A stretch of DNA of 64,000 bases, taken from NCBI GenBank assembly GCA_002269645.1, contig NIVC01001154.1, forward strand, positions 124,001 through 188,000. Direction: 5' to 3'. This document shows, piece by piece, positions 11,069 through 30,916 of this stretch (its first letter is position 1; every line of letters starts with the position of its first letter). The notes below the pieces were generated by a model. The model saw only the letters and a program-made list of their open reading frames with translations. It searched no databases and had not been told where the DNA came from. A program made the position numbers and the translations under genes. Origin of the DNA: Macrostomum lignano. Its lineage: Eukaryota.

Positions 11069-11641
11069 TGTAGTAGGGCATTATTTTAGGAACGGGAAAT
11101 TTTGTGGGTTTAAATATGCTTTTACCCTACTATCAGTAGTTTCAACCCGGGGAAATAATTAGAGCGGGGGTAAGTGGCTAAAATCGGGATTCCTTTAGAA
11201 CTACAGAGCAGTTGGGCTCTCGGGAAAGAAAACTCGGACCTTCGTTGGAGTGTCTTCTCCTGTTTAAACTTAGAGAGTTCACGAAGAAGTGGTAAGGAAA
11301 GGGAAATATAAGGGATAGGCTTGCACAGAGGAGTCTTGCCTCTAAAAACTGGGAGTCTTGCCCAAGCACTATAACGGGAATAAGAAAATAGGGAATTAAT
11401 GTAAAAGCAAAACTAACTTTTGTACCGTAATTCACTTTTCTATTATAAAGCTTTTTTTGTGTTAACTAAATCCAAATTGGTGTCCTGACTTGGTTCTTTA
11501 AGCCTAAAGCTAGAATTAAGGAACAGCAGGAACCTGGTGGCAGCGAACTACCAAACATTAAGCAGTACCACAGATAGCAATCCGCTCATAATCCTTAGCA
11601 ATAAGAACCAGTAGCTTAGCCGCGGTTACACGCCCATTCCA
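11069..11641 (+). repeat. 5' LTR of element A
   Basis: Starts TGTAGTAGGG, ends CCCATTCCA; near-identical to 30917-31489. Confidence 0.97.
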
Positions 11642-11643
11642 AT

Positions 11644-11653
11644 TGGTGGCAGC
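11644..11653 (+). promoter_or_regulatory. Primer-binding site of element A (TGGTGGCAGC; resembles the complement of a tRNA-Leu 3' end)
   Basis: TGG-initiated sequence 2 nt (AT) after the LTR end; the tRNA identity comes from remembered tRNA-Leu ends, not from this genome's tRNA set. Confidence 0.75.
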
Positions 11654-12094
11654 TTAGAGGATTAGAATACCCGAGAAGCGCATACATTAGACTGGAGCTT
11701 AGGATTAGTAAGGGATTAACGGATTAACTCCTATGTGCTGAAATTAGAACTAAAACTAACACAAAATTACTTATTAGGTTCTAAATTAGAGATTAATGTA
11801 CATAGTCAGTGGTCTAAGATCGTCTAATCTCAGATTAACGGATTAACGGATTAGGAACGGATTAACGCTCCTGAAAGGAATTTTAACTTAGTTTCTTCGC
11901 TAGAAGATTAGTAAAGTCTCAATTAAGACCAGAAGTAAGGCGGAAGTAATAAAATTAGAGTCACTGCTGTTTTATTAACTAAAGTCTTACCATTAGGCAA
12001 TTTAGCAGCTAAATTCGGAGTCTTGCCAATTTACTGACCAAAATTATTAAACCAGAAGCGTTAATTCTAAAATCCAACCTAAAATTAAACTAAT

Positions 12095-13138
12095 ATGGAA
12101 GCTAATGACGTAGTAGAAGCACTGGCTGAAGGCATTAGAGACAGGCTAGACATTAGGAAACATATTAGGATCCAAAAGTACACGCCTAATCAGGATATAG
12201 ACGTATGGATTCAGGCTTTCGAGCAGAGGTGTATCGCAGATGAGATACCCCCAGCTGAATGGAAGAATGAGCTACTGTCTAACCTAGATGTTCAGTCAGC
12301 GTTCGCTATCGTGACAAGGCTAAACTTAGACCCTAATCTAGCATACGCAGACTTTAAGGATAGACTAATTGAGCGGTTCACGCATGTAGGTAGTGCTCAA
12401 GAAGCTAGGGAAGAGTTCCGTAGTAGGTTCCAGTGCAAAACTGAGAGCACTGATGACTACGCTGAAAAACTGACAGAGCTAGCATGCAGGGCGTTTCCCC
12501 ATCTAACTAACGATCAGAGACAGGAAGAGGTGGTGGAACAATTTATCAGAGGTGTTAGGGTTGCCCCAGAGACTAGGGAAAAGCTACTGCTAGCTCAGGT
12601 AAACTCGCTTCAAGAGACACGTCGAGTCTTGCGACGTATCGAAATGGCGTACGCCATGTCTCGCCGAGGTAGAGACCCGCAGCAGTGTAAGGCAACTGGA
12701 GGAGAAGAAGCTGAGAATGGCTTGAAGGAATTAGTCCGCAAACAGGGTGAGGCGCTAGAGACCCAGCAGAAGGTGCTTCAGGAGTTACTCCGACACCACC
12801 AGAGTGTTGAGCAAAAGGTCAAGCAGCAGCAGCCGTCAGGTCAGCAGCAGCAAGGCCAGAATCAGCAGAGGCGTCCCCCAGTGAAGTGCAACAGGTGTGG
12901 CAAGCTAGGTCACATAGCTAAGAATTGTAGACAGCCACATCCGCAGAACCAACTTAGGTACCCGGCTCAGCAGCAGATGCAGTATCAGCAGCCGCAGTAT
13001 CAGCAGCCGCAGTATCAGCAGCCGATGTACCCACAGCAGCAGATGCAGCCGCAGTACCCGCAGCCGCAATACCCTCAGCAGCAGAATTCGGGAAACGGAG
13101 TAGACGGAAGCGTCGGAGGCAACGCTTTCCAGCAGTAG
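12095..13138 (+). CDS. Element A Gag (capsid, CCHC zinc knuckle, Q/P/Y-rich tail), 347 aa
   Basis: Retrotransposon-gag-like helices (WIQAFEQRC...AREEFRSRFQ...ESTDDYAEKL...EQFIRG); CNRCGKLGHIAKNC = CX2CX4HX4C. Confidence 0.95.
   Translation: MEANDVVEALAEGIRDRLDIRKHIRIQKYTPNQDIDVWIQAFEQRCIADEIPPAEWKNELLSNLDVQSAFAIVTRLNLDPNLAYADFKDRLIERFTHVGSAQEAREEFRSRFQCKTESTDDYAEKLTELACRAFPHLTNDQRQEEVVEQFIRGVRVAPETREKLLLAQVNSLQETRRVLRRIEMAYAMSRRGRDPQQCKATGGEEAENGLKELVRKQGEALETQQKVLQELLRHHQSVEQKVKQQQPSGQQQQGQNQQRRPPVKCNRCGKLGHIAKNCRQPHPQNQLRYPAQQQMQYQQPQYQQPQYQQPMYPQQQMQPQYPQPQYPQQQNSGNGVDGSVGGNAFQQ
13090..13130 (+). promoter_or_regulatory. -1 programmed ribosomal frameshift signal of element A (G GGA AAC + downstream hairpin)
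   Basis: GGGAAAC at 13090-96 is correctly phased in gag (TCG GGA AAC); stem GGAAGCGT (13106-13)/ACGCTTTCC (13122-30); the -1 frame is open from here into the protease ORF. Confidence 0.8.
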
Positions 13139-13760
13139 ATCCCTCACAGTCTGTAGCCTCACAACCTGTAAATAGCAGCGATAGTTTTTCTGTAAATAGT
13201 GAATTGAATCCTTCAGTGTATAACAGTACGCATGCGCAATCATTTAATCAATCATTTAATCAGCCGAACATTTACTCTCAGCACTTTTCAAACGCACCAC
13301 AACAGCAACCTTATTCTAGCAAGCAGCAGCTAAAACAACCAAAATTAACTGAACAAACTAAAAAGCAAAGTTACGATCCGTACATCACTGGCAGCATTTT
13401 AAATAAGGAAATAGTTTATCTATTAGACACTGGCAGTAATAGAAATATCTTAGGACGCGAAACCTGGAAGCATCTTTTCACTGGCAAGAATAGGCATCTA
13501 ATTAAGCATTGGGACAATAGAATCGTTTCCTTTATGGAAGAGCCTATTCCAATTAAGGGTTTCGTAGTTATTAAGGCAACATTTGGCGATTTTGAAGAAG
13601 AAGTTGAATTTCTCTTATGTGACGCAGATGTAGACAATGTAATAGGTGTGACGTTTGTCCAAAAATATTGTAATACCATTGACTTCGATGCAGGAATGCT
13701 AACCATGAAACAAGGAACTAGAATTCCGCTTCGATCAACCAGAGCTAAGCCTCAGGTTAG
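13090..13760 (+). CDS. Element A Pol, 5' part (aspartic protease), cut by insertion of element B
   Basis: YLLDTGSNRNIL protease motif and ...DNVIGVTF flap region. The ORF-track tail after 13760 (VEYYISQ...) is read-through into B's LTR. Confidence 0.92.
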
Positions 13761-14812
13761 TGTAGAGTATTATATCTCCCAGAAAAGTTATTTAAAATTG
13801 TTAACGTACTACTTAAATAGTAGTAATTTGAGGAGCATGTATAAGGATATGCGCTGAACCATACATATATTCGAATTAACCAATAGAAAGAGAGAAATCT
13901 CGAGCATGCTAATTTTAGAAATCACCCAATCACGTGCGACCAACAACTGTCAATTCAAACCCCACCTTCAAGTCATCATTTGGTTTGCACTCGGGTTGCA
14001 CCCGGATGAACCAATCAAAGTCTACCAGCTACGGTAACCAATCATGCGCTTTTACAGTAGACTAGTTGCGCAACTTTCTACCCTGTCATGCTTGACAGCC
14101 ACCGAATCGTGACCCTTTGACATTTGCGAAGACAGTGATGTACGACCTCGAGAGAGGTCTGAACGCCTATAAATACAAGTGGTCCGGAACGGACCCGGAG
14201 CCAAGAAATCTCCAAGGGAGAGAAGCTCCGAAGAGGAAGCTCTAGTGAAGCCTTCCTGAAGAAACTCGCGTCGTGGACGAGTTCTTGCGGTAAGCCTTAC
14301 TCATTTGCGCCCGTTGGTTGAGACGTCTCGCTCAAGTCTATTGAGACTTGAGTTTATTTGAGTCTGTTGAGACTCTTGAGTCTGTTTAGACTCCACTGGT
14401 TGCAGTCTCCAGAAGGACTGCCCCTGATAGATCTTAGAAGACTATCAGTGGTTTCCGGAGCCATACCTAGAGTGCATAGAGGCACTACTAGAAGGAGTAG
14501 GCTTATATTAAACCGCAGATTGGCGCAGGGTACCCATTGTTGATTTGGAAGCTTCCCATTGGTCCGCACTACAGATACCGGCCGGAAACGACTTCAGTGG
14601 ACGTAAAGGAACGCGGACCTGGTTACGAACATAGACGTCTAACGAAGTTCGAGGTTCAAAGGAAGTCCGAGAATAACAGAACACGGAAGAGCTCTCAGAG
14701 ACAGGACTCAAGGTAATACATACCTTCATTTGATTACTGGGTTGCCTAGCTACAGAGCTAGAAGTGATTGTTCCTTGATTACAGCTGAGGACTGGTAATA
14801 AGGAACACATCA
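13761..14812 (+). repeat. 5' LTR of element B; several CCAAT boxes and TATAAATA at 14168
   Basis: Near-identical to 24544-25594. Confidence 0.97.
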
Positions 14813-14814
14813 AT

Positions 14815-14825
14815 TGGTGATCTCG
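14815..14825 (+). promoter_or_regulatory. Primer-binding site of element B (TGGTGATCTCG; primer tRNA uncertain, closest to a Trp-type TGGTGACCCCG)
   Basis: TGG-initiated sequence 2 nt (AT) after the LTR-terminal CA. Confidence 0.7.
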
Positions 14826-15508
14826 CCCTCTCGGCACTACTCAAACTTTTGAGCAATAGCCTGGCCAAGCTATTGTAAAGTGACGAAAGAGCGACTTCAT
14901 TAATTTTGCGCGCACGTGTTAGAGGTAACACTTTTCGACACTTTTCGATTTTTGTACGATTTGAAACTCGAGTAAAAGTTTAGATATACAGGCTTGAGTA
15001 CCTGTCAATTTTGAGTAACGTTTGAGCACGCGTGTTAAATTTTTGTTTTTAACGAGCTCGAGCAAGAGTAAACCTTAAACAAAACCGAAAACAACGTCCG
15101 GTACACTGAAAACAAACCGAAAAATAATCAATACACACTAAAACAAAACCGAAATTAAAAACACTTGACGAAAGCTAAAACAAACCGAAATTTGATAAAA
15201 CGTGACAAGGCACGTCACGAAGACAAGAAAGGCCTTTGAAAAAAGCAAGAAGCAGCTGCACTTCAAGCACTTTAAAGATACACTTTGCGGGACGCCGCAT
15301 AAGTGCGAAAATCAGCCAGCGAATAAGAGGTCAGAAAAAGCAGCCAAAAGCCGAATTCCGCTCAAGGTCAGACATAACAAATTGAGGTGTCAAAAGCGCC
15401 GCGAGACAATCAGTTACAACCGAAGTTTATTTCGAAAGAAACACCACACTGGAAGATCCATTACAAATCGACCCAGACCTAGAGCTACCGTTCTATCCCA
15501 TCAACAAC

Positions 15509-16591
15509 ATGGCGCGGCGCAATCCAACGGTGCACAGAGATATCAAAGAGACAGTTGGCACCTTTTCTATGGAAAAAGACTTTAACACCTTTGTTGATCA
15601 TTTTGACCTGGTATGTAGGGAATACAACCTACAAAATCCAGAAAAAGCGCAACTGTTGCCACCACTCCTCCAAGGCACTGCACGAGAGATTTATGGTAAA
15701 CTAGACGCGGCAACACAGCAAAACTACCCAGCATTAATCATTCAACTGCGCGCACACTTCAACCGCTGTGGCACAAACAGGTCAGTGCTACTGCACAAGT
15801 TGCATAACAGACGGATGCAGCCAACAGAATCCTTCCTGACCTTCGTGGACGATATACGTCAAATAATTAAGGCACTGCATCAGCCAACGCTGCCAGCTGC
15901 GGATCAGCCACCTCCAGGCGCAGCGGAGTTAGCCGCAAGAGAGCGACAACGATTGATGGACCGTGAACAAAACCTCATCCTGCACGTAATAAACAATGCA
16001 CAGCCGTCACTGCGGGATAGACTTTTGCGCGAGAACATTGAAACCGAGGAAGACCTTTTACGGTGCGGAATGCAGTGGGAAGCAAGCGCTCCACTAATGA
16101 CAACCGGCAACACAGAAGTGCAGAAACTGACACAGCAACTAAACAAACTGATGCAACATCAAACAGCCGTTATCGCCGAACAAAAAAGACGAAATGAACG
16201 AGCCCAAGCCAGATGCTATTACTGTGGACGAGAAGGACACTACCAAATACATTGTCCTCATCGGTCAACAAGAAATGATATGCCGCGACAGCCATTCAAC
16301 AGACGAAAGCCGCAAAAACCATGGCAACAGCATCAAAATTGGCAGCAGCAAAACACGAAACGCTTAGGAAACAATGGCTACAGACCGCGAAACGCCAGAT
16401 ACATGCCCAAGCAACCAACGCAAGCGATGCAACGATATGCAAACGCCATCACGTACACACCGGAAAGCGAACAGCAAGAGCAGCAAGTCTTCACGATAGA
16501 CGACTTGAAATGGACTTCACTATCAATGAAATCGACTGGCTCGATGCGGAGAGCAGCGAAAAGACAAAAAACATCAGCATGGTCGAAATGA
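15509..16591 (+). CDS. Element B Gag (capsid + CCHC knuckle)
   Basis: FNTFVDHFDLVC...LLQGTAREIY...LHNRRMQPTESFLTFVDDI capsid-like pattern; CYYCGREGHYQIHC = CX2CX4HX4C. Confidence 0.93.
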   Translation: MARRNPTVHRDIKETVGTFSMEKDFNTFVDHFDLVCREYNLQNPEKAQLLPPLLQGTAREIYGKLDAATQQNYPALIIQLRAHFNRCGTNRSVLLHKLHNRRMQPTESFLTFVDDIRQIIKALHQPTLPAADQPPPGAAELAARERQRLMDREQNLILHVINNAQPSLRDRLLRENIETEEDLLRCGMQWEASAPLMTTGNTEVQKLTQQLNKLMQHQTAVIAEQKRRNERAQARCYYCGREGHYQIHCPHRSTRNDMPRQPFNRRKPQKPWQQHQNWQQQNTKRLGNNGYRPRNARYMPKQPTQAMQRYANAITYTPESEQQEQQVFTIDDLKWTSLSMKSTGSMRRAAKRQKTSAWSK

Positions 16592-19500
16592 AAGAAACTA
16601 ACATTGACAGCGAAGAAGAAAAGGCAGAAGTGAGCACAGAAAAAACATTGCCAAGCGACATCAATGAAAGAAAAGAAGAAACAAACAAAGGCAACGACAA
16701 AGAACTGGCAACGAAGGATGACAACGAAAGAAGCAACGACGGAAATGCAGAAATGGAAGAAGAACAGCAAGAAGAAAGCAGCGATCACGATTATGAGATG
16801 CAGAATGACGCTGATGACAACCAAGCCGCCGACAAAGAACATGAAGACGGAAGGCACAAAGGAATGGAAGAAAGAAATCTAAGCTCCGACAGCGATCAAT
16901 GCTACGAGATCCGATATAAACGAAATGGTGAAGCCTACATTCAAACGGTCGACTACAAGGCCGAAGTAAGGTACCGCAGACAATGGAGTGACACAACTAC
17001 AACATCGGAAGAAAGCAAGGACGAAAATGATGAAGACGACAAGCAGCGGAACGAATCGGATGCCTTGCGCTCGGAAACGCCAATGGAACAAGAGGAAGAA
17101 TACGATGCGGACGCAGAAGATAACGAATGGCAGCCGCAGCCAATGCCAGCAAAGACAACGGCAACGTTCAGAAAATGGCGATTCTGGATATTCTGGATCA
17201 TCATAATACTACTGACGGCAGTAGTCACCAAAGCAACAGCAATGGAGAAACCAATGATATGTCCAACGGATGCGCATATCCAACCGATGATCTACAAGAT
17301 ACCAACCGACATCAAATGCAGCTACTTCAAGACAAATCAGACGAAGCCAAAGAAGATCACAATTGATCTCTACAAAGCTAACATCAAGAAGCATCGACAA
17401 CTCGGAATAGTGTGCTTTAGAGACAAGCACCTAGTGGAAAAAGTTTGGCGAGGACAATGGAACAGAATTCGATTTTGGCAACACGAACTACATGTGTCGC
17501 ACGCTGAATGTCTACAATGGAACCAAACACTGTTCTCAAAGGATGGTCAGCTAGAACCGGATGAGAAAGTGGGGGAGGCACAACTTTACCGAACGAAGAA
17601 CTCAGCAAACGGACGATATGTACACTTTTCGGAAGCATGGACTAACTACATGACACGAAACAGTTACCTAATCAGGAATATTCCATTCTACCACAATCCT
17701 TTTGAAAAAATGGAGTCGCTACAACTGCAATTAAGCGACTGCCGATACAGCAAAGGATGGTGTCCAACGCCGATACTGCGGAATGAGGAACTATACAGCT
17801 TACCGTTGAGTCCAACATATCATCAAGACTATCGATGGCAAATAATACGCAGAGGCGACTCACGATATGAAGAACCATCTAAGTCACGACAATACTTCTT
17901 CGCGTGGGAAGTTGAGCCGGAAATTGACTGCAAGCTTCAAAAGTATCACACAGTTGAAGGAGGTCTACTGTCAAACACGTTTTTGGCAAAGTCAGGAGAC
18001 TTGGCACTGACATTTCAAAAGAAACCAGTCGAGCAAAAACTGAAATGCAAGGATACAGACAAGACACTATTCATCTCGGAACAAGAGATACCAGTCTACG
18101 TAAAAGATGACGACAAACAAACCTTTCTGGCGATCATCAACGGAACGTATCAACAGCAGGAACAACAGAACAGACGACGACGTGACATCGAACGTCCCAA
18201 ACTGGTGTCAAACCGACTACTGTCAGCAAAGATAACGGCTTTGGATCACAATCTACACAACCAGTTAAACCACTTGCATCGAACACTGGTCCAGCTAACT
18301 TGCAAAATGCACGCAATCAACTTAAATTATGCCAGACAAAACTACTATGTCAACCCTACGATGACTTTTCGTAAAATCACCGGAATGACGAACGTTTTGG
18401 CAGTTCCAATATACGAGCATCTGTTGATATACAAGTGCACGCCGATACAGCACTTTAACATCTTGCCGTCGAACACGTCAACAACCTGCTACGACAAGCC
18501 AAGGATTGAAGCGTTCTACGAAGGAAAACGAATTCAGGGATTCTTGGACACGGTACACAACATCATCGTTGGCACCGCAATACCGAGACCTTGCACCACG
18601 GCAGCGAACTACTATCAACTGGACAATGCACTACACGTCATCAAAACAACTGGAACGACAGCAAACATCACAGAACCGGAAGTAATCGTCGACGAAAACT
18701 ACGACATGGAGGATTTGAAAATCCGATTCAACAGAACAAAGTATACGCCATTCGCCGATATCCAACTTGACGAAATAACACCAGGATGGACGATCAACGA
18801 CTTCTTGCAAGCGTTCATCACCCAACGCAAGATGATTCACCAGCTGTTCACAAGAAAGGACAAAGGAACCGGGACAGGAAGATTTCCCGTCCTTGTTTCA
18901 ATGGACAGCGCCATCAAATCATTTTGGACAAACAGCTTCTGGGAGCTGCTCAATGGAAGAGGCAGTCTCTATCAAGGATTCATCTTCTACGGTGCTTGCA
19001 TTGTGTGGATTGTCACGGCAATCTTCATCATTTCGTCAATCGTACGGTGCTTCAGTCAAACTTGTCCAAGAGCTAAGAAGACAGTGAATGCCATAATGCA
19101 AAGAACGACAACGGAAGGCGACAACAGTTTAGAACTAACAGAAACTGCACATCGTGAGGTTCAAGGGCAACCGACACTAGCAACGCGGCTATATCCATCG
19201 ATTCCGACAACACCAACGGCACCAAGAATACAACCACCTAACTATCAAGCAGAACAGCAAGACCCAAAATGGCCAGAAAACTACGTATGTACTCTACACG
19301 CCGAAATTGGCAAAGCAATGGCTCAAGTTATAATCAACAATCTACCATGTCGAGCGTTACTGGACTCCGGCAGCTCCATTACAGTTATATCAAAACAACT
19401 GTGCAACAAGCTACGACTTGCTCTACGGCCAGCAACAATCGCAGTTGCAGGAGCAGGAGGACATTCGCTAAACATTCTGGGAAAAGCCGACATTGATTTA

Positions 19501-21156
19501 AGAATCGCTAATAAACATTTGACAGTTCCAACGTACGTCATCGACAGACTCCCAAACCAGGACGTTATTGTTGGCATCGACACGTTCAAGCAGCTTCGAC
19601 TACCATTGACCTTCGACTTCAATAAGCAAACGTTCAAGATCGACTCGGTAGAACAACCATTGATCAACCAGATCCGAGTACTACCAAAAGTAACATTGCA
19701 ACAAGATGTCATCATCCAACCGGAGAGCGCCTGCTGGATAAAGGCAAAGGCAACTAACGCAACGGAGGAAGCAATGATATTCGACCCAAACAGAAGAGTC
19801 ACGGCTAAACACCAAATTATGATGCCTACGGCACTAGTACTGGTTGCAAAAGATAAACAGCTGCCAGTACAAATATTCAACCCGAACACAGAAACGGTTC
19901 ATCTACGACAAGGAATGTGCATCGGTCATCTCAACACCCAAGCATCGGTTATGCTGATTGAGCAAGCGACTCCACGACTAACAGAGGAAGAATTTCAAAA
20001 GAAGATCAATTTGGATGACAGCCCGATTACGGAACAGCAAAAGAGGAAAGTTCGACAGCTGTTGTGGAAGTACAACGACGCTTTCTGCCACCATGACTAC
20101 GACATCGGACGAGCCAAGGACATCAAACAGGAAATCAAACTTCTGCCGCACACGGAACCAATTCAGTGCAAACCGTACCCGATCGCCAAGCATCTGCAAC
20201 AGCACTTCGATGAGATTATCGACAAAATGCTGAAACACGGCATCATCAGCAAAGCCATTTCAGCATACTCATCACCATGTCTCTTGGTGCAAAAGAAGGA
20301 GACTAACGAAAGACGACTCGTATGTGACTTCAGACTACTGAACAAGTACATACCGACGGATCAGCAAAGCCTACCGAAGATCTCCGAACTACTAGCAAAG
20401 CTCAACACGGCAAAATTGTTCACAGTGTTCGATCTACGTCATGGATTTTGGCAAATTGAAATCGAGAAAGAGTCACGACAGTACACGGCTTTCAAAACCT
20501 ACAATGGACAAGTATACGAGTACAATCGATCGCCGATGGGACTCAGCAACAGCCCAGCAACGATGAGCCGACTAACAGCATACATGCTTGCAGGATGCAC
20601 GAACCTGTTGCACTATGTTGACGACATCTTGGCCTACGGAGAAGACTTCGAACGACTCTATGAAGCGACGGAGAAGGCCCTCGCGCTTATACAACGTCAA
20701 GGTCTGAAGCTACAACCAACTAAATGCAAATTCTTCCGAGACAACGTGCGTTACCTGGGACATCAGGTGACAGCCAAAGGAATTTCACCGGACCCAGACA
20801 ACGTGGATAAAGTGAAAAAGTTTCCTACGCCAACTAGCATAACGAAGGTCCAATCATTTCTTGGACTAGCGCAATACTTCCGAAAGTTCTTACCCAACTT
20901 CGCGAAGACAGCAAAGCCGCTGTACGACCTGCTCAAGTTCGACAAATGGAAGCAGGAGAATTGGACACAAAAGCAACAAGAAAGTTTTGACGAAATCAAA
21001 CGACAGCTGACATCAGACGCACTGCTACAGCATCCGGACTTCGACAAACCCTTCATCATCGAGACAGACGCCTCAGGAACGGGACTCGGAGCGTCCTACT
21101 ACAGGAAACTGAAGAAAAAAGGAACGACCTATAGCCTACGTCAGTCGAGCACTTAA
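16321..21156 (+). CDS. Element B Env-Pol polyprotein: acidic linker, signal peptide, class III-like glycoprotein ectodomain, TM, late-domain tail, protease, RT, start of RNase H
   Basis: Hydrophobic WRFWIFWIIIILLTAVVTKATA (from 17176); 12-Cys ectodomain with RRRR furin site (18172-83); TM GFIFYGACIVWIVTAIFIISSIV (from 18976); LLDSGS (D at 19363); YVDD (20614); IIETDASGTGLGA; all in one stop-free frame. Confidence 0.93.
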   Translation: MATASKLAAAKHETLRKQWLQTAKRQIHAQATNASDATICKRHHVHTGKRTARAASLHDRRLEMDFTINEIDWLDAESSEKTKNISMVEMKETNIDSEEEKAEVSTEKTLPSDINERKEETNKGNDKELATKDDNERSNDGNAEMEEEQQEESSDHDYEMQNDADDNQAADKEHEDGRHKGMEERNLSSDSDQCYEIRYKRNGEAYIQTVDYKAEVRYRRQWSDTTTTSEESKDENDEDDKQRNESDALRSETPMEQEEEYDADAEDNEWQPQPMPAKTTATFRKWRFWIFWIIIILLTAVVTKATAMEKPMICPTDAHIQPMIYKIPTDIKCSYFKTNQTKPKKITIDLYKANIKKHRQLGIVCFRDKHLVEKVWRGQWNRIRFWQHELHVSHAECLQWNQTLFSKDGQLEPDEKVGEAQLYRTKNSANGRYVHFSEAWTNYMTRNSYLIRNIPFYHNPFEKMESLQLQLSDCRYSKGWCPTPILRNEELYSLPLSPTYHQDYRWQIIRRGDSRYEEPSKSRQYFFAWEVEPEIDCKLQKYHTVEGGLLSNTFLAKSGDLALTFQKKPVEQKLKCKDTDKTLFISEQEIPVYVKDDDKQTFLAIINGTYQQQEQQNRRRRDIERPKLVSNRLLSAKITALDHNLHNQLNHLHRTLVQLTCKMHAINLNYARQNYYVNPTMTFRKITGMTNVLAVPIYEHLLIYKCTPIQHFNILPSNTSTTCYDKPRIEAFYEGKRIQGFLDTVHNIIVGTAIPRPCTTAANYYQLDNALHVIKTTGTTANITEPEVIVDENYDMEDLKIRFNRTKYTPFADIQLDEITPGWTINDFLQAFITQRKMIHQLFTRKDKGTGTGRFPVLVSMDSAIKSFWTNSFWELLNGRGSLYQGFIFYGACIVWIVTAIFIISSIVRCFSQTCPRAKKTVNAIMQRTTTEGDNSLELTETAHREVQGQPTLATRLYPSIPTTPTAPRIQPPNYQAEQQDPKWPENYVCTLHAEIGKAMAQVIINNLPCRALLDSGSSITVISKQLCNKLRLALRPATIAVAGAGGHSLNILGKADIDLRIANKHLTVPTYVIDRLPNQDVIVGIDTFKQLRLPLTFDFNKQTFKIDSVEQPLINQIRVLPKVTLQQDVIIQPESACWIKAKATNATEEAMIFDPNRRVTAKHQIMMPTALVLVAKDKQLPVQIFNPNTETVHLRQGMCIGHLNTQASVMLIEQATPRLTEEEFQKKINLDDSPITEQQKRKVRQLLWKYNDAFCHHDYDIGRAKDIKQEIKLLPHTEPIQCKPYPIAKHLQQHFDEIIDKMLKHGIISKAISAYSSPCLLVQKKETNERRLVCDFRLLNKYIPTDQQSLPKISELLAKLNTAKLFTVFDLRHGFWQIEIEKESRQYTAFKTYNGQVYEYNRSPMGLSNSPATMSRLTAYMLAGCTNLLHYVDDILAYGEDFERLYEATEKALALIQRQGLKLQPTKCKFFRDNVRYLGHQVTAKGISPDPDNVDKVKKFPTPTSITKVQSFLGLAQYFRKFLPNFAKTAKPLYDLLKFDKWKQENWTQKQQESFDEIKRQLTSDALLQHPDFDKPFIIETDASGTGLGASYYRKLKKKGTTYSLRQSST

Positions 21157-21171
21157 ACCGAATGAGACAAA

Positions 21172-22824
21172 ATGGTCAGCTACGGAACGAGAACTACTAG
21201 GAGTTCTGTTCGCCTACGACAGTTTCACTACTACATCTATGGATCTCCATTACAGACGATAGTACGCACAGATCACGCACCGCTGACCTACGTCGTAACT
21301 ACAAAAGGACAAACAAACAACCGACTCATCAGGATGACACTCAAGATCCAGGACTACAACTACAAGCTCGTCTACAAACCAGGAATTACTAACAAGGCCG
21401 CGGACGCCCTGTCAAGAACCTACGAAGTCAACGCCATTCATCCAATCCCTAACATCAAGGAATTGGTGGATGAGACGGAACACGACAACTTCTACATAGC
21501 AGTTAAAAACAACGACAAGGACATCAAGCTCAGCCCCGTGGAACGAAAATTCCTGCGCAAGCAGCGACAACATTTAACAATCAACAAGTCACGACTCTAC
21601 TGGATGAGTGACAACAAACCTAAAATCTACATGCCATATTCGTTTAGGCAGGCAATTCTCAACGAGCTGCACGACAACCCACTCGCTGGACACCTGTCGG
21701 CAGCCAAAACCATTGCAAGAGTGGAGCAATACTACTTTTGGCCAAGCATGCATGGCGACATCAAGCAGTATTGCAACAACTGCCACTCATGCGCAGCATC
21801 GAAGACAGGACGACGACAAAAACCACAGCTACAATCGATACCAAAGTCAACAACTATGGACTGTCTCAGCATCGACATCACCGGACCGCTGCCACCGAGC
21901 TGTCTCCATGGCATAGCCTACACCTACATCCTAACAGCCTTGGACATTTTCTCAAAGTTTGCTATTGCCATACCAATACCGGACATCACAGCTCAGACAG
22001 TGGCAATGGGTTTCTTCAACGACATCATCTGCAAGTACGGTACGCCAAAGAACCTCACATCGGACAATGGATCGCAGTTTACGTCTCAACTCTTTCAGCA
22101 AGTGGTGAAGATCCTCAACATCACGCAGATCTACACATCGACCTACAATCCGAAGGCGAACATGGTTGAAAGGTTTCACCGCAACCTACACGAGATGATT
22201 ACACACTTCGCGCATCAACAACCGGACGACTGGATCATCTATCTGCAAGCAGTAACAATGGCCTACAACAGCGCTATTCATCGATCAACGGACAATACGC
22301 CATTCTTTCTAATGTTTGGGCGAGACTTCCAGCCGCCAAACCTATTGGCACAGCAACTACTACCATCGCAATATGTGGAAGTCCCGACGTCCATTCAAAA
22401 GTTCGTCACGCAACTACACCTCGCATGGAAAGTAGCCAAGCACAACATCGACAATCAGGTGGCTCTGACCACCGGCACCGACACGAGATCGACAACTCTG
22501 ACAGCCGGCGACATCGTCTACCTGCACTATCCGCCACAACAGACGCACAAACACGCACAGAAGTACAAAGGACCATATCGAGTGGTCCAACTAACGTCAC
22601 CGACAACGGCACGCCTGGCCAATGTGCAAGATCCTCATCAGCACCAATTCTACGTGCACATTCATCGATTGAAAAGGGTCAACACTGACACGGCGACATT
22701 TCTACCGTCACTTGACAATGCCGACCGCACGCGTTCGACAAACCGCCACATCGCAACGAAGCACGAGGAGACTCAAACAACGAACGAGAGCCAGCCGCAC
22801 GGCTATAATCTGCGACCTCGTTAA
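21172..22824 (+). CDS. Element B Pol, 3' part (RNase H remainder + integrase); same frame as the upstream ORF
   Basis: RTDHAPL, NKAADALSR; HHCC (HDNPLAGH...CNNCHSC), SIDITG / SDNGSQF / VERFHR DDE triad, GPY motif. The true junction is masked by three 1-nt deletions at 21093-21214. Confidence 0.93.
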   Translation: MVSYGTRTTRSSVRLRQFHYYIYGSPLQTIVRTDHAPLTYVVTTKGQTNNRLIRMTLKIQDYNYKLVYKPGITNKAADALSRTYEVNAIHPIPNIKELVDETEHDNFYIAVKNNDKDIKLSPVERKFLRKQRQHLTINKSRLYWMSDNKPKIYMPYSFRQAILNELHDNPLAGHLSAAKTIARVEQYYFWPSMHGDIKQYCNNCHSCAASKTGRRQKPQLQSIPKSTTMDCLSIDITGPLPPSCLHGIAYTYILTALDIFSKFAIAIPIPDITAQTVAMGFFNDIICKYGTPKNLTSDNGSQFTSQLFQQVVKILNITQIYTSTYNPKANMVERFHRNLHEMITHFAHQQPDDWIIYLQAVTMAYNSAIHRSTDNTPFFLMFGRDFQPPNLLAQQLLPSQYVEVPTSIQKFVTQLHLAWKVAKHNIDNQVALTTGTDTRSTTLTAGDIVYLHYPPQQTHKHAQKYKGPYRVVQLTSPTTARLANVQDPHQHQFYVHIHRLKRVNTDTATFLPSLDNADRTRSTNRHIATKHEETQTTNESQPHGYNLRPR

Positions 22825-22970
22825 GTTGCGAAAACAAACCCGTGTAGAGACCGGGTCAGAATAGCTCTACAGCTTCGCAAGCTTGTCGTAAGAGGCGACT
22901 AATCCGAGCGACTCCACAAGTGAACTCTACAATTGACTACATAACCGCAACTGACGCTTGGCTAACGACT

Positions 22971-23639
22971 ATGGGCAATGCACAGTCTAGACTGGCGACC
23001 CAGCCACGGCAACTCTATGAATGCCCTGTCTGTTTGGAAGATGACCTGTATAAAAAACCACCAACCATTTGTATAAATAATCATCGCATATGCGGCACTT
23101 GCTTGTGTGACGCGCATCATATCCAACACTGGCAAAGCTGCCCCCTATGTAGGAGTAGTCTGACGCAGTGCGCCTATTGTTATTCGTGGCGCACCTTTCA
23201 ATACTGTAATCAAAGTCATTTTATTTGCATGCAATGCTTGAAACGAACCGCTAGTAGGGGCATCATAGGATGCCCTATGTGTAACAGTATGCCGAAGGAC
23301 AGCACCTTCAAGAAGTGGTGTCGCATCAAGCCCGACGCCAATCGATGCTTACATGTTGATAATATTCGAACACTACCCGCAATACGTATCGAACAGTTGC
23401 TAGAGTTTTGGCCAGTACCTCGTTTCGCTCGACGGTCACGCAATGAATTACTACCGTACGCACATAACAATCAAGGAATATTGCGTCATATGTTACCCCT
23501 GGATATAGAACGACATCTACGACAATTTTTGCATGCCCATCACGCGTTTCACTGGACATTGCACATATATTGCCACGCGCTAAAAAGATTAATTTTGTCA
23601 CGTAGTTATTTCATATGGCTTTTACGGTATACACAGTAG
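22971..23639 (+). CDS. Element B accessory ORF 1: tandem C3HC4-type RING protein with N-myristoylation motif (222 aa from the ATG)
   Basis: MGNAQS; CPVC..CINNH..CGTC..CPLC and CAYC..CNQSH..CMQC..CPMC; lies inside the LTR boundaries. Confidence 0.85.
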   Translation: MGNAQSRLATQPRQLYECPVCLEDDLYKKPPTICINNHRICGTCLCDAHHIQHWQSCPLCRSSLTQCAYCYSWRTFQYCNQSHFICMQCLKRTASRGIIGCPMCNSMPKDSTFKKWCRIKPDANRCLHVDNIRTLPAIRIEQLLEFWPVPRFARRSRNELLPYAHNNQGILRHMLPLDIERHLRQFLHAHHAFHWTLHIYCHALKRLILSRSYFIWLLRYTQ

Positions 23640-23693
23640 ACTGTATACTTCACCCTGACTGCTTTAATTACGATGATTACATAAAACCCGCAG

Positions 23694-24332
23694 ATGGCCG
23701 AGAACAACGACGTATGCCCCTGCTGTCTCGAGACGCGGGACTATATGATCCCGACGTGTGAGTGGGGACACCGCGTGTGTGTCTCCTGCGACGCCATGGC
23801 GCAGCAGGTGGATGGCAATGTTACCATGCTATCTACCTGCCCGGTCTGCCGTCGCGCGCGGGCTACCTGTGTGGTATGCGGCGAACAGCCCCATGTTCAG
23901 GTGTGTTCCAACCGACATTGGGTCTGTGCAAGCTGTCTCCGAAGGTACGGTGCAAGAGATATAGAGATCTGCACCGAATGTCTAGCTCCTGTCAACCATT
24001 CGACGGCGCTGATGTTGGCGACAATAACACCAGTGCCAGAGTTGACGTTGGCGGAGCCGGACAGCTTGACCTTCGAGCAATTGTCCATCGCCGTCCGGTC
24101 GTGGCCGTGGCCGCACCGGCATCAGGAGTCATGGCGTCACGTCCTTGGAATTTCCAGGAGCCTGGCTCGCGAGCACCCAGGACTCACGAGTATTGACGCC
24201 TACCTGATGATACTCGAGCGCACAGAGGAACCGCGCTTCACACGCTTTCAGCCGACATTCTGGGCGGTGGCATGTCTGGCTGCGCGAACAGCGCAGCAGA
24301 TATCCGCCGTGCTCAAAATCGGGTTCGGCTGA
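23694..24332 (+). CDS. Element B accessory ORF 2: tandem C3HC4-type RING protein, 212 aa
   Basis: CPCC..CEWGH..CVSC..CPVC and CVVC..CSNRH..CASC..CTEC; same architecture as accessory ORF 1. Confidence 0.85.
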   Translation: MAENNDVCPCCLETRDYMIPTCEWGHRVCVSCDAMAQQVDGNVTMLSTCPVCRRARATCVVCGEQPHVQVCSNRHWVCASCLRRYGARDIEICTECLAPVNHSTALMLATITPVPELTLAEPDSLTFEQLSIAVRSWPWPHRHQESWRHVLGISRSLAREHPGLTSIDAYLMILERTEEPRFTRFQPTFWAVACLAARTAQQISAVLKIGFG

Positions 24333-24505
24333 TCGTCCGAGCGGCATCAACACAGGGGCAAGTGTCATCTGCATTTATCAGACGATAACTTTCCATTAAC
24401 TCTGACAAAACTAACTACTGATAATGTATACAATGTAACATACCGGCAATATAAATATATACAATATCAAGTTCAAGACGTTTCTGTAAATTTATATTTT
24501 TATTC

Positions 24506-24540
24506 AAACTCGGGACGAGTTTTTTCGTAAAAAAGGGAGA
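24506..24540 (+). promoter_or_regulatory. Hairpin (AAACTCG-GGA-CGAGTTT) and polypurine tract of element B
   Basis: Perfect 7-bp stem followed by AAAAAAGGGAGA, 3 nt before the 3' LTR. Confidence 0.8.
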
Positions 24541-24543
24541 TTT

Positions 24544-25594
24544 TGTAGAGTATTATATCTCCCAGAAAAGTTATTTAAAATTGTTAACGTACTACTTAAA
24601 TAGTAGTAATTTGAGGAGCATGTATAAGGATATGCGCTGAACCATACATATATTCGAATTAACCAATAGAAAGAGAGAAATCTCGAGCATGCTAATTTTA
24701 GAAATCACCCAATCACGTGCGACCAACAACTGTCAATTCAAACCCCACCTTCAAGTCATCATTTGGTTTGCACTCGGGTTGCACCCGGATGAACCAATCA
24801 AAGTCTACCAGCTACGGTAACCAATCATGCGCTTTTACAGTAGACTAGTTGCGCAACTTTCTACCCTGTCATGCTTGACAGCCACCGAATCGTGACCCTT
24901 TGACATTTGCGAAGACAGTGATGTACGACCTCGAGAGAGGTCTGAACGCCTATAAATACAAGTGGTCCGGAACGGACCCGGAGCCAAGAAATCTCCAAGG
25001 AGAGAAGCTCCGAAGAGGAAGCTCTAGTGAAGCCTTCCTGAAGAAACTCGCGTCGTGGACGAGTTCTTGCGGTAAGCCTTACTCATTTGCGCCCGTTGGT
25101 TGAGACGTCTCGCTCAAGTCTATTGAGACTTGAGTTTATTTGAGTCTGTTGAGACTCTTGAGTCTGTTTAGACTCCACTGGTTGCAGTCTCCAGAAGGAC
25201 TGCCCCTGATAGATCTTAGAAGACTATCAGTGGTTTCCGGAGCCATACCTAGAGTGCATAGAGGCACTACTAGAAGGAGTAGGCTTATATTAAACCGCAG
25301 ATTGGCGCAGGGTACCCATTGTTGATTTGGAAGCTTCCCATTGGTCCGCACTACAGATACCGGCCGGAAACGACTTCAGTGGACGTAAAGGAACGCGGAC
25401 CTGGTTACGAACATAGACGTCTAACGAAGTTCGAGGTTCAAAGGAAGTCCGAGAATAACAGAACACGGAAGAGCTCTCAGAGACAGGACTCAAGGTAATA
25501 CATACCTTCATTTGATTACTGGGTTGCCTAGCTACAGAGCTAGAAGTGATTGTTCCTTGATTACAGCTGAGGACTGGTAATAAGGAACACATCA
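24544..25594 (+). repeat. 3' LTR of element B
   Basis: Near-identical to 13761-14812. Confidence 0.97.
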
Positions 25595-25598
25595 ATAG

Positions 25599-28500
25599 GA
25601 GAATCTATGTCGCAGAAAAAACGACAGTTTCAGCCAATAGTTCAGGATTAGTCAAGGTCAGATTAGCAGCAGGTAGTGAAACTAATTTCGGAGTGCCATC
25701 AGTTATTGAGCCACTCAGATCAGGATTGAAGACTAGAACAGAGAAAGTAACCGTAGTGCCAAGTTTAGTAACTCTAAGACAAGGGGAAGCTTATTTAGAA
25801 GTAATTAACACCAGTTCACAGGAAGCTAGAGTACCAGCATCAGCATTAGTTGGGATGGCCAAGCCACTCTTAGCTAGCGAGCTTAACTATCTGAAGGAAC
25901 AGCCAGAAGAAGAGCAGAATAAGAACACGCAGTCTTGCGGAAGCAGAGAAAAGATCAGCCAGGTACAGGACAAGTCAGAAGACTGGATTAGTGAGATTAA
26001 CATAGGAACTGAACTGACTCAGGAACAGAGACAAAAGGTGATCGAGGTCGTCAAGGAACATTCAGCAGCTTTCTCGCAGCACGAGTTAGACTTAGGCAGA
26101 ACGCATTTAGTCACACATGAAATTATCTTGAAGGATAACAACCCAGTTCAGATACCAGCTAGAAAGATTCCACCTCATTGGATCAAGGAGGTAGATGAGC
26201 AGTTAGATCTCATGTTGGCTAGAGGCATAATTAGGCCTAGTTACTCGCAGTACTCGACTCCATTAGTCATAGTACCTAAGAAAGACGGTTCGCTTAGATT
26301 AGTTAACGACTATCGAGCACTAAACAATAAATCGGAGTATTTTCCGTATCCAATAACTAATATCAATGAAACATTCTCATGTCTCCATGGAGCCAGTCAA
26401 TTTTCTACGTTAGATCTATTTTCGGGATATTATCAGATAGCTCTTAGGGAAGAAGATAAGTGCAAGACTAGCTTTCCAACTTTACATCGAGGCTCGTTTG
26501 AGTACGAAGTATTGCCAATGGGACTGCAAGGAGCTCCAGGAACTTTTCAAAGGTGCATGAACTTAGTTCTTAAGGACATTGCACAGAAGTTCGCCATAGC
26601 TTACTTAGACGATGTAATAGTTTATAGTGCAGACTTTGAATCGCATTTAGAACACCTGAAAGAAGTGCTCAAGAGACTAATCCAAGCTAACATGAAACTA
26701 AAGGCTAAGAAATGTCACCTTTTCAAATCAGAATTACAATATCTAGGACACGTCATAGGCAAAACAGGAATTAAGAGAGATGCGTCGAAATTAGAATCAA
26801 TTAGGAACTGGCCGAAACCTAAATCTGTGACAGAGCTTCGAAGTTTTCTCGGACTCTGTAATTACTATAGAAAATTCGTTAGAGATTTTGCCGAGGTAGC
26901 AGCACCACTCTGTGAGTTAACTAAGAAGAACATCAAGTGTATCCAGGACAAATGGACCAGGATTCATGATGAATGCTTCGAACTGTTGAAGGAACGGATG
27001 TGTTCCGAAGAAGTGCTTGCTTACCCAGAGTTCAATACAGACCCCCAAGTTTATTTTGTGTTAGACACTGATGCATCAGATGTCAGAATTGGGGCGGTCT
27101 TGAATCAAGTTCAGAGCGACGGCATAGAAAGTCCGATCGCGTATTATAGTCGGAAGATGAGGCAGTCAGAAACTAGATATCCGATTACGAGGAAGGAGCT
27201 TCTAGCGATTGTTGACTCGCTGAAGTATTTTAGATTTTACCTCGTAGGAAAACATTTTAAGGTGCGCACTGATCACAATGCCCTAACCTGGTTGCTTCGC
27301 CAAACCGAACAGACAGGCATTTTAGGTCGTTGGATCGAAAGACTTTCTGAATTTGATTTTGAGATAGAACATAGGAGTGGCCCTAAACATGTGAATGCTG
27401 ACGCTCTATCCAGGATCCCTGATCCTCAACCGGAAGAGATGTCCCCACATGCCAGGTCGCTAAGCTGTAGGGCAACTGTGAATACAGACCCAGCATCAGC
27501 TTTTACTGTCAGCTCAGGCAATTCCGCGTTCGCTGAAACCTGTAGCTCGAGCAGTGGAGTTCCGTCATGCTGTTCGTCACAAGACACTGTCACGAACCGA
27601 CACAATACTCCGATCTTTAGTAGCAGTAGGCTAGACAATAGACAGGGACAGGAGCCTAAAACCGGAAATCCGCCTGCATGCAATGCCCTGCTCAGTGACT
27701 ATCTCCGTAGCCCAGTTCGCCGTGACCAATTGATCGCAGCACAGCTAGCCGATCCGGCGGTAGGCTTTGTTAGAAAATTAATTGAGAATGACTCGCCTAA
27801 ACCGACATTTCAAGAACGACTAGAGTTAACCCACGACTGTAGGAACCTCTTAGGTTACTACGAGTTGCTCAGAATTGAGGACGGCGTACTCAAAGTAGAC
27901 TTATCTATGGGGCAGACTGATCCAAAGGTAGTGTTGCCCAAGTCTCTGGATAGTGAAGTCTTTCACCAATTCCATGATTCACCGTTAGCGGGACACCTAG
28001 GTCGAGATAAAACTTATCAGAGAATTAAAATTCGATTTTGGAGGCCAGGATTAGCAACAGCAGTTGAACGCTACGTAGCCAAATGTAAATCATGCCTAGA
28101 AAGCAAAACTAGAAGAAGAATTAAGGCACCAATTCAGAACTATCCTGTAGTCGAACCGTTCGGTAGATTGCACATAGATCTAATAGGACCTATTGGCCAA
28201 ACTAGCAAATCAGGAAACAAATATGTACTTTCAGTCATAGACAGTACTAGCAAATTTCCATTCGCATTCGCAATTAGGAATCAGAAGGCTAAAACAGTTA
28301 TCAAAATTCTACAAGAACGAGTTTTCGCTGATTTTGGGATTCCACAATGGATTCACACAGACCAGGGAACACAGTTCACTGGTAGGGCCTTTAAGAAATT
28401 TTTAGACCTCTATGGCATTAGACACACTCGAACAACTAGTTATCATCCGCAGAGCAATGGCTTAGTAGAAAACCTTAATAAGCAGATTAAATCAATTCTC

Positions 28501-29535
28501 ACCTGTTTACTGGAGAAGGAGCATTCCAACTGGGACGTTCTGTTGCCAGGTTGCATAACAGCTCTGAGAACCAGCACGCACACTGCCACAGGATTTAGTC
28601 CGCACTATTTAGTCTTTGGACGAGAGGCCAGAATGCCCTGTGACAATGAGCTGAACGAGCCAAAGCAGTTTCAGGACCTGCCATCTTATGTCCAGGAACA
28701 TCAGCAGAATCTGCAGGAAGGCCAAGAACTAGCGAGAAAGAGATTAAAATTAGTGCAACAAAACCGTGAGCAGGAGTACTCTAACAAGCCTAAGCCGAAA
28801 ACATTGCCTGTAGGAAGCTTAGTATTTATCAATAATCCAGTAATTGCTAACACAGAGGCTAACAAATTTCACAGAAAACAGAGGGCAGTTTACGAAATTG
28901 TAGAACAACTATCAGAAGTAGTCTTTAAGATTAGACCAGTTACCAGAAATAAGAAGGCCAGGAAGGAAGAACTTATCATGCATAGAGACAATTTAATGAA
29001 AGTACCGCAAGCAGATTATCAGGAAGAAGAAGCTAGTACTAAACCAAAAGAACAGAAGAAACAATACGATAGGGAACAGTTAGCCAATAGTCAGCCGAAT
29101 GGGTACAATGACTCAGAAAGTGAAGACGAGTACGAAGACGCAGTGCAGTTTATGCCAGTGCAACATCAAAATAATGAGCAGTTTATGCCAGTGCAAAATC
29201 AAAATAATGTGCAGTTAGTGCCAAATCAACAAGTGCAACATCAAAATAATGAGCAGTTTATGCCAGTGCAAAATCAAAATAATGTGCAGTTAGTGCCAAA
29301 TCAACAAGTGCAGCATCAAAATAATAATCTAAATAATTTAGTAGGTGTACACGGAGTTATGCCAGTACAATTAAATAATAACAATAATAATTTAGGGATT
29401 AATTTAGAAGCTAGGCCAGCGAGAGAGCGTCATGCTCCAGATAGATTAACAGTCAGGCCAAATCAGAAAAGTTATGTGCAGAGGATAGCGGAGTTGTTTA
29501 ACCCATTTAACCTCTTGCAGCCGAAATCCCAATAA
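25599..29535 (+). CDS. Element A Pol, 3' part (PR-RT spacer, RT, RNase H, integrase, Q/N-rich tail)
   Basis: Removing B plus 4 nt restores ...KPQV-RRIYVAEKTTV...GVPSVIEP in frame; AYLDDVIVY, LDTDASD, KVRTDH, HDSPLAGH..CKSC, HIDLIG / TDQGTQF / LVENLNK; no stops. Confidence 0.95.
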
Positions 29536-29538
29536 ATC

Positions 29539-30249
29539 ATGGCCGAAGCCCCTCTTCGGGTGTATCCAAGGAAACGCATCTATGGCCAAAGAAGAAGACA
29601 GGAGCAAGACGAGAATGAGCCCCCGCGAATTCGGGCCGCACAATTGGCAGAGCGTGAAGAATGCAAGAAGCAGAAATTAGATCATCGGGAAGAGGAAGAG
29701 GGTAGGCTAACTATCGACGTAGACCTGGAAAAATTAGGAAGAGAGACGGAAAAAGCGGAAGCTGAATTTAGGGACGAGATGGCGCAATTCATGGAAGAAA
29801 TCCGACAACAGGAAGAAGGGGTGGAACCCATTGATGAGCAGGAAGAGGCGGCCGCGGAAGAACCAAATCACCAGCCGGAGCAGTGTCCATCCGAGCAATG
29901 CCAGGCAGGGCAAGGCCAGCATGAGTCTACGCTCATCGATTACGCTACATTGCTCAGGGCAGATCTGGGTGATACGCCGGCTCCTAAAGAGACCAACGCC
30001 GAACGGCCGGATAGTCCCGGAACGCAGGCGCGGAAATTCCGCAATTGTCGTCGCGCCTTGAAGCGGGCTATCCTGGCTACAGGGAAAAACAGGACGATTC
30101 GAGGCGCAGCTACCGGACGCGTGCGTCCAGTTCTTGGCCACGGCGACCCCAGAGGAAGCAGTCCGATGCTTCGAGATTGCCTGCTCATACTGTTTACAGT
30201 ACGCCGAAGGGAGAGCGCGGGGTCCGACCAATATGAGAGCGACCACTGA
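29539..30249 (+). CDS. Element A ORF3, acidic/charged protein of unknown function (C-terminus uncertain)
   Basis: ATG 3 nt after the pol stop, same frame; basic N-terminus (PRKR..RRR), E-rich helical middle; no TM segment, so not Env. Confidence 0.65.
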   Translation: MAEAPLRVYPRKRIYGQRRRQEQDENEPPRIRAAQLAEREECKKQKLDHREEEEGRLTIDVDLEKLGRETEKAEAEFRDEMAQFMEEIRQQEEGVEPIDEQEEAAAEEPNHQPEQCPSEQCQAGQGQHESTLIDYATLLRADLGDTPAPKETNAERPDSPGTQARKFRNCRRALKRAILATGKNRTIRGAATGRVRPVLGHGDPRGSSPMLRDCLLILFTVRRRESAGSDQYESDH

Positions 30250-30906: not shown

Positions 30907-30916
30907 GAGGGGGAGG
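30907..30916 (+). promoter_or_regulatory. Polypurine tract of element A
   Basis: GAGGGGGAGG directly abutting the 3' LTR. Confidence 0.9.

Follow-up and report, generated by a model that had tools for sequence, protein, structure and literature searches.

Does an envelope gene lodged inside the gag-pol region of a retrotransposon belong to a working gene order, to an accident of a single copy, or to a new kind of element? The question is raised by a 64,000-nucleotide stretch of Macrostomum lignano contig NIVC01001154.1 (the window, from whose first letter all positions are counted), in which a Ty3/gypsy element at 13761-25594 carries a gB-like (glycoprotein B-like) class III fusogen between gag and protease. 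Between its two long terminal repeats (LTRs), the window copy encodes, in order, gag, a linker, a signal, an ectodomain, a transmembrane segment (TM), a tail, protease (PR), reverse transcriptase (RT), RNase H, integrase (IN), and two RING proteins. A stop-free frame of 1625 amino acids (aa), positions 16279-21156, runs from the acidic linker through env, protease, and RT to the start of RNase H, so that Env does share its frame with PR and RT, as a first-pass annotation of the sequence had described. Pfam matches, hydropathy, and LTR alignment of the window copy also bear out the order, frames, and LTRs given in that annotation. The interval that it had drawn, 15509..24332, contains the genes, but the element itself starts at 13761 and its LTRs lie outside. 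We regard the element as most likely a young, multicopy, endogenous retrovirus-like Ty3/gypsy (Metaviridae) family that belongs with the GAG-ENV-POL elements of gB type already described.

Hydropathy analysis of the long frame finds exactly two membrane segments, at aa 304-322 and aa 900-918. The ectodomain between them is Cys rich, with RRRR at aa 632 and six N-glycosylation sequons. Basic residues precede the first segment (RKWR in the window copy and RRKKK in a subfamily with 64% identity) and also follow the second, and the two segments, their basic flanks, and the furin-type site are common to both subfamilies. A sequence search of env against PDB gave nothing better than an E value of 0.27. 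An AlphaFold2 model built from a 33-row alignment reached a pLDDT (predicted local distance difference test) of 77.5 and a pTM (predicted template modeling score) of 0.59, the single-sequence model (pLDDT 31) being unusable. The Foldseek matches listed for this model against PDB are herpesvirus gB throughout, the best being that of herpes simplex virus 1 (HSV-1; E = 5.6e-20), and the top match among predicted viral structures is a Nyavirus glycoprotein (E = 1.3e-25). The Pfam domain Monjiviricetes_fusion is matched by 21 of the 33 aligned env rows. By its predicted structure, the env ectodomain is shown to have a class III, gB-like fusogen fold.

An HMMER search with env among 1.84 billion representative proteins returned 51 matches at E ≤ 0.001, of which 26, picked by length, were scanned with Pfam. 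Seven distant proteins (P0003, P0008, P0013, P0014, P0039, P0047, and P0049) combine env, protease, and RT, in that order, within a single chain, and the homologue P0045 has Pao domains with env at its C-terminal end. P0006, also a distant env homologue, is fused to a NADAR domain at its N terminus. A word-indexed protein search was shallow, with one match for env and two for the env-to-protease stretch; the latter query showed 99% identity over 53% to “Retrovirus-related polyprotein, Macrostomum lignano,” the cluster members of which are labeled likewise.

Genome-wide searches covered the contigs of genome G000, where the env stretch has at least 77 matches (73 of 263 candidates scored), 11 of them within frames of 2461-2538 aa. 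Twenty copies, chosen chiefly by frame length and so as to represent the identity classes, span 99-100% identity to the window copy plus a subfamily 2 at about 64% env identity. All 20 retain the order gag-env-PR-RT-IN with the glycoprotein block in the same place, so it is no one-off. Gag through integrase forms a single frame of 2461-2538 aa in 11 of the 20 (two of them from the 64%-identical subfamily), gag is continuous with env in 15, and no stop or frameshift between gag and env is conserved among them. The window copy is broken twice, by a frame change after gag and a break within RNase H, and because 11 copies have one frame, both are lesions of this copy. Gag, which the first-pass annotation had treated as a unit of its own, indeed occupies a separate frame in the window copy, but it is part of a gag-env-pol polyprotein and no separate gene. 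The two LTRs of the element (1052 and 1051 bp) align over 1051 bases with no substitution and a single indel; thus, the suggestion that copying is recent is supported.

The ratio of nonsynonymous to synonymous substitution rates (dN/dS; Nei-Gojobori method, two pairs of copies) is 0.06-0.12 for env, indicating purifying selection. It is 0.02-0.05 for the capsid part of gag, and the values for gag capsid, PR, RT, and IN all lie within 0.01-0.05. For the acidic linker it is 0.43-0.50; this region is only 21-24% identical to that of subfamily 2, with a D+E content of 31-32% in the window family and 18-19% in subfamily 2. Between the two main subfamilies, dN/dS is mostly undefined because dS is saturated. 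In the pair L031/L022, dS is 0.07 for the C-terminal half of env plus the tail, 0.9 for gag, and 1.5-2.0 for the RING genes, and this unevenness points to an exchange of modules between subfamilies.

Some copies are found in tandem or in clusters (env spacing of 10787 on C669 and 9729 on C2447; at least three copies on C2121, C1130, and C87), which suggests tandem insertion or cluster-like loci. Six near-identical derivatives of subfamily 2 lack pol (contigs C301, C352, C525, C1192, C2828, and C2869); their env match covers only residues 2-327 and stops close to the furin-type site, the RING pair follows within about 1 kb downstream, and they could be an amplified nonautonomous form or duplicated contigs. 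Another lineage in this genome, the P0003 family, encodes a gag-env-pol polyprotein of 2852 aa in several near-identical copies, with PSAP and LYPTL in the tail. P0003-like or related frames (2396-2818 aa) are found on C270, C1672, C4280, C247, C759, C3266, C362, C1512, and C3805, the first four of which are absent from the RING match lists. No P0003 relative was found among the viral contigs searched. Further lineages may be uncatalogued, as the table in PMC13524379 gives one element for this species.

Our preferred reading, to which we assign a probability of about 0.6, is that the element encodes a membrane-threaded polyprotein from which gB-coated particles would bud and fuse with neighboring cells. 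The gag-env-pol chain would cross the endoplasmic reticulum (ER) membrane twice, cotranslationally. Gag, which has no N-terminal glycine for myristoylation, would remain cytosolic and be anchored by the first hydrophobic segment. Signal peptidase would free the N terminus of the ectodomain, probably by cleavage at the A-x-A end of segment 1, and furin would cut the ectodomain. The second segment would return the tail and Pol to the cytosol, with Pol anchored by the TM. Because a chain threaded in this manner has both ends in the cytosol, Gag and Pol would both be brought to the Env-bearing membrane at 1:1:1. The stoichiometry implied by the single frame would thus extend to Gag:Env:Pol and not just to Env:Pol. 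The PTAP, PPxY, and YPxI motifs of the tail, and not Gag, would recruit the endosomal sorting complex required for transport (ESCRT) for budding, and the protease of the element would then release the enzymes. The class III trimer would fuse particles with neighboring cells, through which copies may reach the germline or stem cells. The double-RING genes would supply putative E3-ligase-like accessory factors that are translated separately and not needed for copying, and whose genes have been both swapped and duplicated from one subfamily to another. The threading itself had been put forward in the first-pass annotation, and it gains support, as a model, from the two hydrophobic segments that bracket the class III fold and from the basic flanks in both subfamilies.

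The late motifs YPSI, PTAP, and PPNY lie at aa 972-989 of the long frame, after the second membrane segment. All three classes occur together in 2 of 200,000 shuffles of the window tail, and no strict late motif was found in Gag of the window element family. For a wider comparison, 22 tails were reduced to 17 nonredundant ones by dropping L027, P0060, P0061, P0062, and P0063, the unreduced count of 9/22 being inflated by near-duplicates. A strict late motif is found in 4 of the 17 versus 0.66 expected (P = 0.002) and, with the window tail left out, in 3 of 16 (P = 0.018). PTAP and YPKI occur in copies L027 and L030. On these sequence comparisons, the late motifs are a trait of this Macrostomum lineage and are not shown to be general. 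Candidate protease sites ANAI/VNAI lie after the nucleocapsid (NC), after the TM, and before IN.

The two double-RING open reading frames (ORFs) noted in the first-pass annotation are present in the window copy, but their number differs among the 20 copies. Two full ORFs are present in seven copies, a full one plus a shortened one in a single copy, and three in another; seven more carry just one ORF, shortened to 89-144 aa, and in the other four no such ORF reaches 80 aa. In an alignment of eight RING paralogues, 19-40% identical to RING-A, the Cys/His pattern of the two RING-like fingers never varies and a WP motif is shared, and zf-C3HC4_3 is above its cut-off in one of seven RING proteins. 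The C-terminal part of RING-A looks helical and has no Pfam or Atlas match, so that no TRAF-like substrate-binding domain was recognized by these searches. RING-A begins with MGNAQS, presumably a myristoylation-like start, and no such start is found in subfamily 2. The dN/dS values of RING-A (0.09 and 0.22) and of RING-B (about 0.19-0.20, at near-saturated dS) show the RING genes to be under purifying selection.

In G000, RING-B has 151 matches. A RING-A match lies no more than 15 kb downstream on the same strand at 77 of 83 env places (by coordinates, with split duplicates dropped), and env lies upstream of 80 of the 106 RING-A matches kept, out of 150, after removal of RING-B cross-matches and split pieces. 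Six or seven co-oriented RING-B matches stand in a row on C4009 and C272, with a same-strand env match upstream; these arrays were located by coordinates. Co-oriented double-RING runs of three to seven were observed at C272:407486-415277 (-), C4009:39923-48270 (+), C1405:270776-276249 (-), and C1063/C1064.

Neither the protein word search nor ESM Atlas yielded a RING homologue outside this genome. The former gave 0 of 144 candidates for RING-B at E ≤ 0.001, and the latter gave only generic viral RING leads (0.84-0.90, low recognition) and nothing for the C-terminal part. CERV of Cer1 was considered as a RING protein and rejected, “ring” in the accessible text of PMC10309623 referring to multimer rings. 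RING is not mentioned in the rotifer extra-ORF paper, nor are LTR or retrovirus in the Macpiwi1 paper. The main text of PMC13524379, as opposed to its figures and GitHub files, which were outside the search, contains no whole-word RING, late domain, budding, signal peptidase, frameshift, or polyprotein. Thus, the conserved, copy-variable SINA-like double-RING cassette is not found in print, and neither are the tail PTAP/PPxY/YPxI motifs, with Repbase, GyDB, and subscription journals outside the search. The likeliest role of the RING proteins would be in countering host defense or in aiding ubiquitin-dependent budding. A further RING is encoded elsewhere in the window, where a GC-rich frame of 525 aa at 47933-49510 (+) has a C3HC4 RING with a TRIM-like score pattern and a poly-Q tract; it is probably a host gene.

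Several observations weigh against a budding polyprotein equipped with RING accessory factors. The Monjiviricetes_fusion match in the window copy (E = 4.7e-5) is under the cut-off, and global TM-scores in Foldseek are low (0.2-0.46), which may reflect domain orientation in a fusogen of multiple conformations. The excess of late motifs is not significant when both Macrostomum lineages are left out (2/15; P = 0.11). In subfamily 2, copy L028 has degenerate motifs and has lost PTAP, and of the candidate ANAI/VNAI sites only the one before IN is kept. All Sina_RING scores, that of the window copy included, are under the curated cut-off (best, 28.3 versus 29.3 bits), and many copies have a shortened RING-A or none, which makes the cassette dispensable for copying.

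The same polyprotein could also operate without free virions, with budding into the ER or endosomes or local cell-cell fusion or transfer, and with the TMs serving mainly as assembly anchors. We consider this unlikely, although sequence cannot tell it from free virions and late motifs are missing in 13 of the 17 tails. The discussion in PMC13524379 calls the entry mechanism of gB-type elements unknown and notes the need of herpes gB for helper glycoproteins; however, the conserved furin-type site, the sequons, and the three late-motif classes fit secretory transit and ESCRT-dependent budding. A still smaller chance attaches to the single frame being a genomic layout only, with spliced or prematurely ended messages giving extra Gag or an env-less Gag-Pol and so breaking the 1:1:1 ratio. 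Capsids usually require much more Gag than Pol. Nonetheless, 11 of 20 copies, representing two subfamilies, keep the whole frame intact, and between gag and env it is uninterrupted in 15, with no conserved stop or frameshift, although the single-ORF element Cer1 does make a spliced cerv mRNA (PMC10309623). Contigs from four public runs, three of them only presumed to be RNA, span the env stretch and contain no GT-AG joint skipping env, a result that is neutral on expression and splicing; one low-depth env skip, with CA..CA at its ends, resembles a copy that has suffered a deletion. There is a negligible probability that the glycoprotein block reflects a single chance insertion, an assembly error, or cargo in decay. 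The window copy does have two breaks, and many copies are interrupted or incomplete, but the block holds its position in every copy taken, the same layout is found in distant proteins and in print, and the public-run contigs cross env; the number of env matches, the constant order, and the purifying selection refute a one-off or a misassembly.

The membrane-threaded polyprotein may be extended, tentatively and with considerable doubt, to an infectious invertebrate analogue of a retrovirus with an alphavirus- or flavivirus-like polyprotein, budding signals in the env tail, and double-RING ligases, varying from none to about seven, that would act as lentivirus-like antidefense genes. If this were true, the double-RING cassette would constitute a set of accessory genes of a sort not reported from Ty3/gypsy elements and could be followed in stem cells and the germline; RNA interference (RNAi) and imaging are routine in this flatworm. 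If the RING proteins are E3 ligases, they would point to a conflict between a flatworm host and the element. Of all the features, the variable RING cassette, itself under purifying selection, is the one that may be unfamiliar to specialists. Predictions left open by the published survey concern the processing of a fusogen inside a gag-pol chain, the use of a gB-type env without helper glycoproteins, and the location of the budding signals.

Table 1. Positions in the window of the parts of the Ty3/gypsy element and of the element that surrounds it
Feature	Positions	Strand	Basis or remarks
5' LTR	13761..14812	+	1052 bp, TGT...TCA; compared with 3' LTR
Primer-binding site (PBS)	14815..14826	+	Sequence, 3' of 5' LTR
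gag, capsid-like region and CCHC knuckle (~16214-16255)	15509..16591	+	Starts at ATG 15509; separate frame only in the broken window copy
Acidic, fast-evolving linker, nucleocapsid to signal	16534..17163	+	D+E content, dN/dS
Internal signal or signal-anchor (predicted)	17167..17241	+	Basic n-region, hydrophobic core, A-x-A end; hydropathy; both subfamilies
Class III (gB/nyamivirus G-like) fusogen ectodomain (predicted)	17242..18975	+	Pfam, AlphaFold model, Foldseek
Furin-type site (RRRR, aa 632 of long frame) in ectodomain	18172-18183	+	Sequence
Transmembrane anchor	18976..19032	+	Hydropathy; Cys and basic residues come next
Cytosolic tail with late-domain-like LYPSI, PTAP, PPNY	19033..19300	+	Motif sequence, shuffles
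Aspartic protease (DSG ~19363), RT (YVDD ~20614), RNase H start	19306..21156	+	Pfam; RT versus PDB
Remainder of RNase H and integrase (H2C2 zinc domain, rve core)	21166..22824	+	Pfam
RING-A accessory gene, 222 aa, two SINA-like RING fingers and C-terminal part	22971..23639	+	Weak Pfam, Cys/His alignment
RING-B accessory gene, 212 aa, RING-A paralogue (22% identity)	23694..24332	+	Weak Pfam, Cys/His alignment
Polypurine tract (PPT)	24529..24540	+	Sequence, just 5' of 3' LTR
3' LTR	24544..25594	+	1051 bp; compared with 5' LTR
Outer env-less Ty3/gypsy element, pol interrupted by insertion	11069..31489	+	573-bp LTRs, 1 mismatch, CTAG duplication

The element is nested inside pol of the outer env-less gypsy element (Table 1), the LTRs of which lie at 11069-11641 and 30917-31489. 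It is flanked by TTAG (13757-13760) and ATAG (25595-25598), which can be read as a 4-bp duplication with one mismatch or as a 3-bp TAG, and the outer element is flanked by CTAG at both 11065-11068 and 31490-31493. Both are thus bordered by a 4-mer ending in TAG, which hints at a common target preference. The zf-CCHC Pfam match in gag is weak (E = 0.043), and the CCHC motif is visible directly in the sequence. An additional ORF, acidic and about 230 aa long (29555-30249), comes right after the pol of the outer element and has no Pfam match. The rest of the window contains a P-element-like DNA transposon (51407-55994) that is bounded by terminal inverted repeats of 321 bp (99%) and has its transposase ORFs on the minus strand, a Tc1/mariner-like element (39297-41247; DDE_3, helix-turn-helix) with inverted repeats, a ribosomal protein L22/L17e-like ORF (446-1006, -), and an RRM-containing ORF (35191-35925, -). 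Many minisatellites with units of 21-30 bp occur throughout.

With respect to known systems, the pol order PR-RT-RNase H-IN is that of Ty3/gypsy elements (Metaviridae), and further hallmarks of this group are present, namely, TG...CA LTRs, a PBS, a PPT, and a short target duplication (one mismatch). Against PDB, the RT matches Ty3 RT (4ol8) at an E value of 3.6e-49, that of the murine leukemia virus (MLV) type (RT/RNase H p80) at ~1e-24, and that of human immunodeficiency virus (HIV) at ~1e-11, an assignment that is a similarity ranking and not a phylogeny with named clades. The element departs from Retroviridae in that its RT is nearest to Ty3 and its env is of class III and before pol, versus class I and after pol. 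A small, midpoint-rooted RT tree of 10 rows, none of them a named NERV, joins the window element first to P0003 (98/97) and next to the outer env-less element (96/94); six more env-first proteins, the nematode-labeled P0013 among them, fall elsewhere. This grouping agrees with the published view that the GAG-ENV-POL layout is not monophyletic.

The NERV elements reportedly have a continuous gag-env-pro-pol ORF, a nyamivirus-like env, and extra ORFs for a small protein or a helicase, and they are said to be restricted to chromadorean nematodes, with monophyletic RTs. The present family resembles them in its continuous ORF (11 of 20 copies) and in the Nyavirus glycoprotein that is its top predicted-structure match. 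It differs in its host, most likely a flatworm given the 99%-identical protein labeled Macrostomum lignano, and in its RING pair, which is unlike the extra ORFs reported for NERV. NERV also has env before pol (Sacco 2022, doi 10.1099/jgv.0.001739, as cited in PMC13524379). The Drosophila errantiviruses gypsy, ZAM, and Idefix likewise combine a Ty3/gypsy backbone with env, and their soma-to-germline infection offers a functional model, but their env is F-type and follows pol, whereas a class III env lies inside the polyprotein here. The env-bearing BEL/Pao elements, such as Tas, are of another retrotransposon superfamily and have env downstream of integrase. Those with a chuvirus-like or gB-like env, of which P0045 is an example, share the class III fusogen (Dezordi 2020, as cited in PMC13524379).

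Both the premise of the first-pass annotation, that env lies downstream of pol, and its suggestion of a novel layout give way to published elements. According to the text of Chary & Hayashi (eLife 2026, PMC13524379), elements that combine the order GAG-ENV-POL with an HSV/gB-type env are spread over several unrelated clades and come from Nematoda, Bryozoa, and Platyhelminthes; their gB-type ectodomains are bounded by a signal and a TM or by two TMs, and the nematode env-before-pol cases are credited to Sacco 2022. The layout is therefore already known. As in their gB-type “ancient errantiviruses,” env lies here between gag and pol, with the class III ectodomain between two hydrophobic segments. 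Their table of nine flatworm elements includes Platyhelminthes_Rhabditophora_Mlig_errantivirus_2 (ENV_HSV, 16 copies), a row that matches the present family in its Ty3/gypsy pol, its gB-type env between gag and pol, and its multiple copies. The PBS given for it in supplementary file 1 is the reverse complement of the window PBS at 12/12 bases, and its LTR-to-LTR spacing of 9727 compares with a unit of 9729 in the tandem short-RING variant here, unlike the 10.8-kb unit of the window variant with two full RING genes. Two env peptides had no matches in supplementary file 2 of PMC13524379, in which the six flatworm env rows are all from Schmidtea; that supplement lacks the env sequence of the catalogued element, so the identification is based on PBS, spacing, env type, and host label. 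The window family is very probably already catalogued as Mlig_errantivirus_2. Since the layout is not new, the element is no new kind but a clear and very young example of GAG-ENV-POL.

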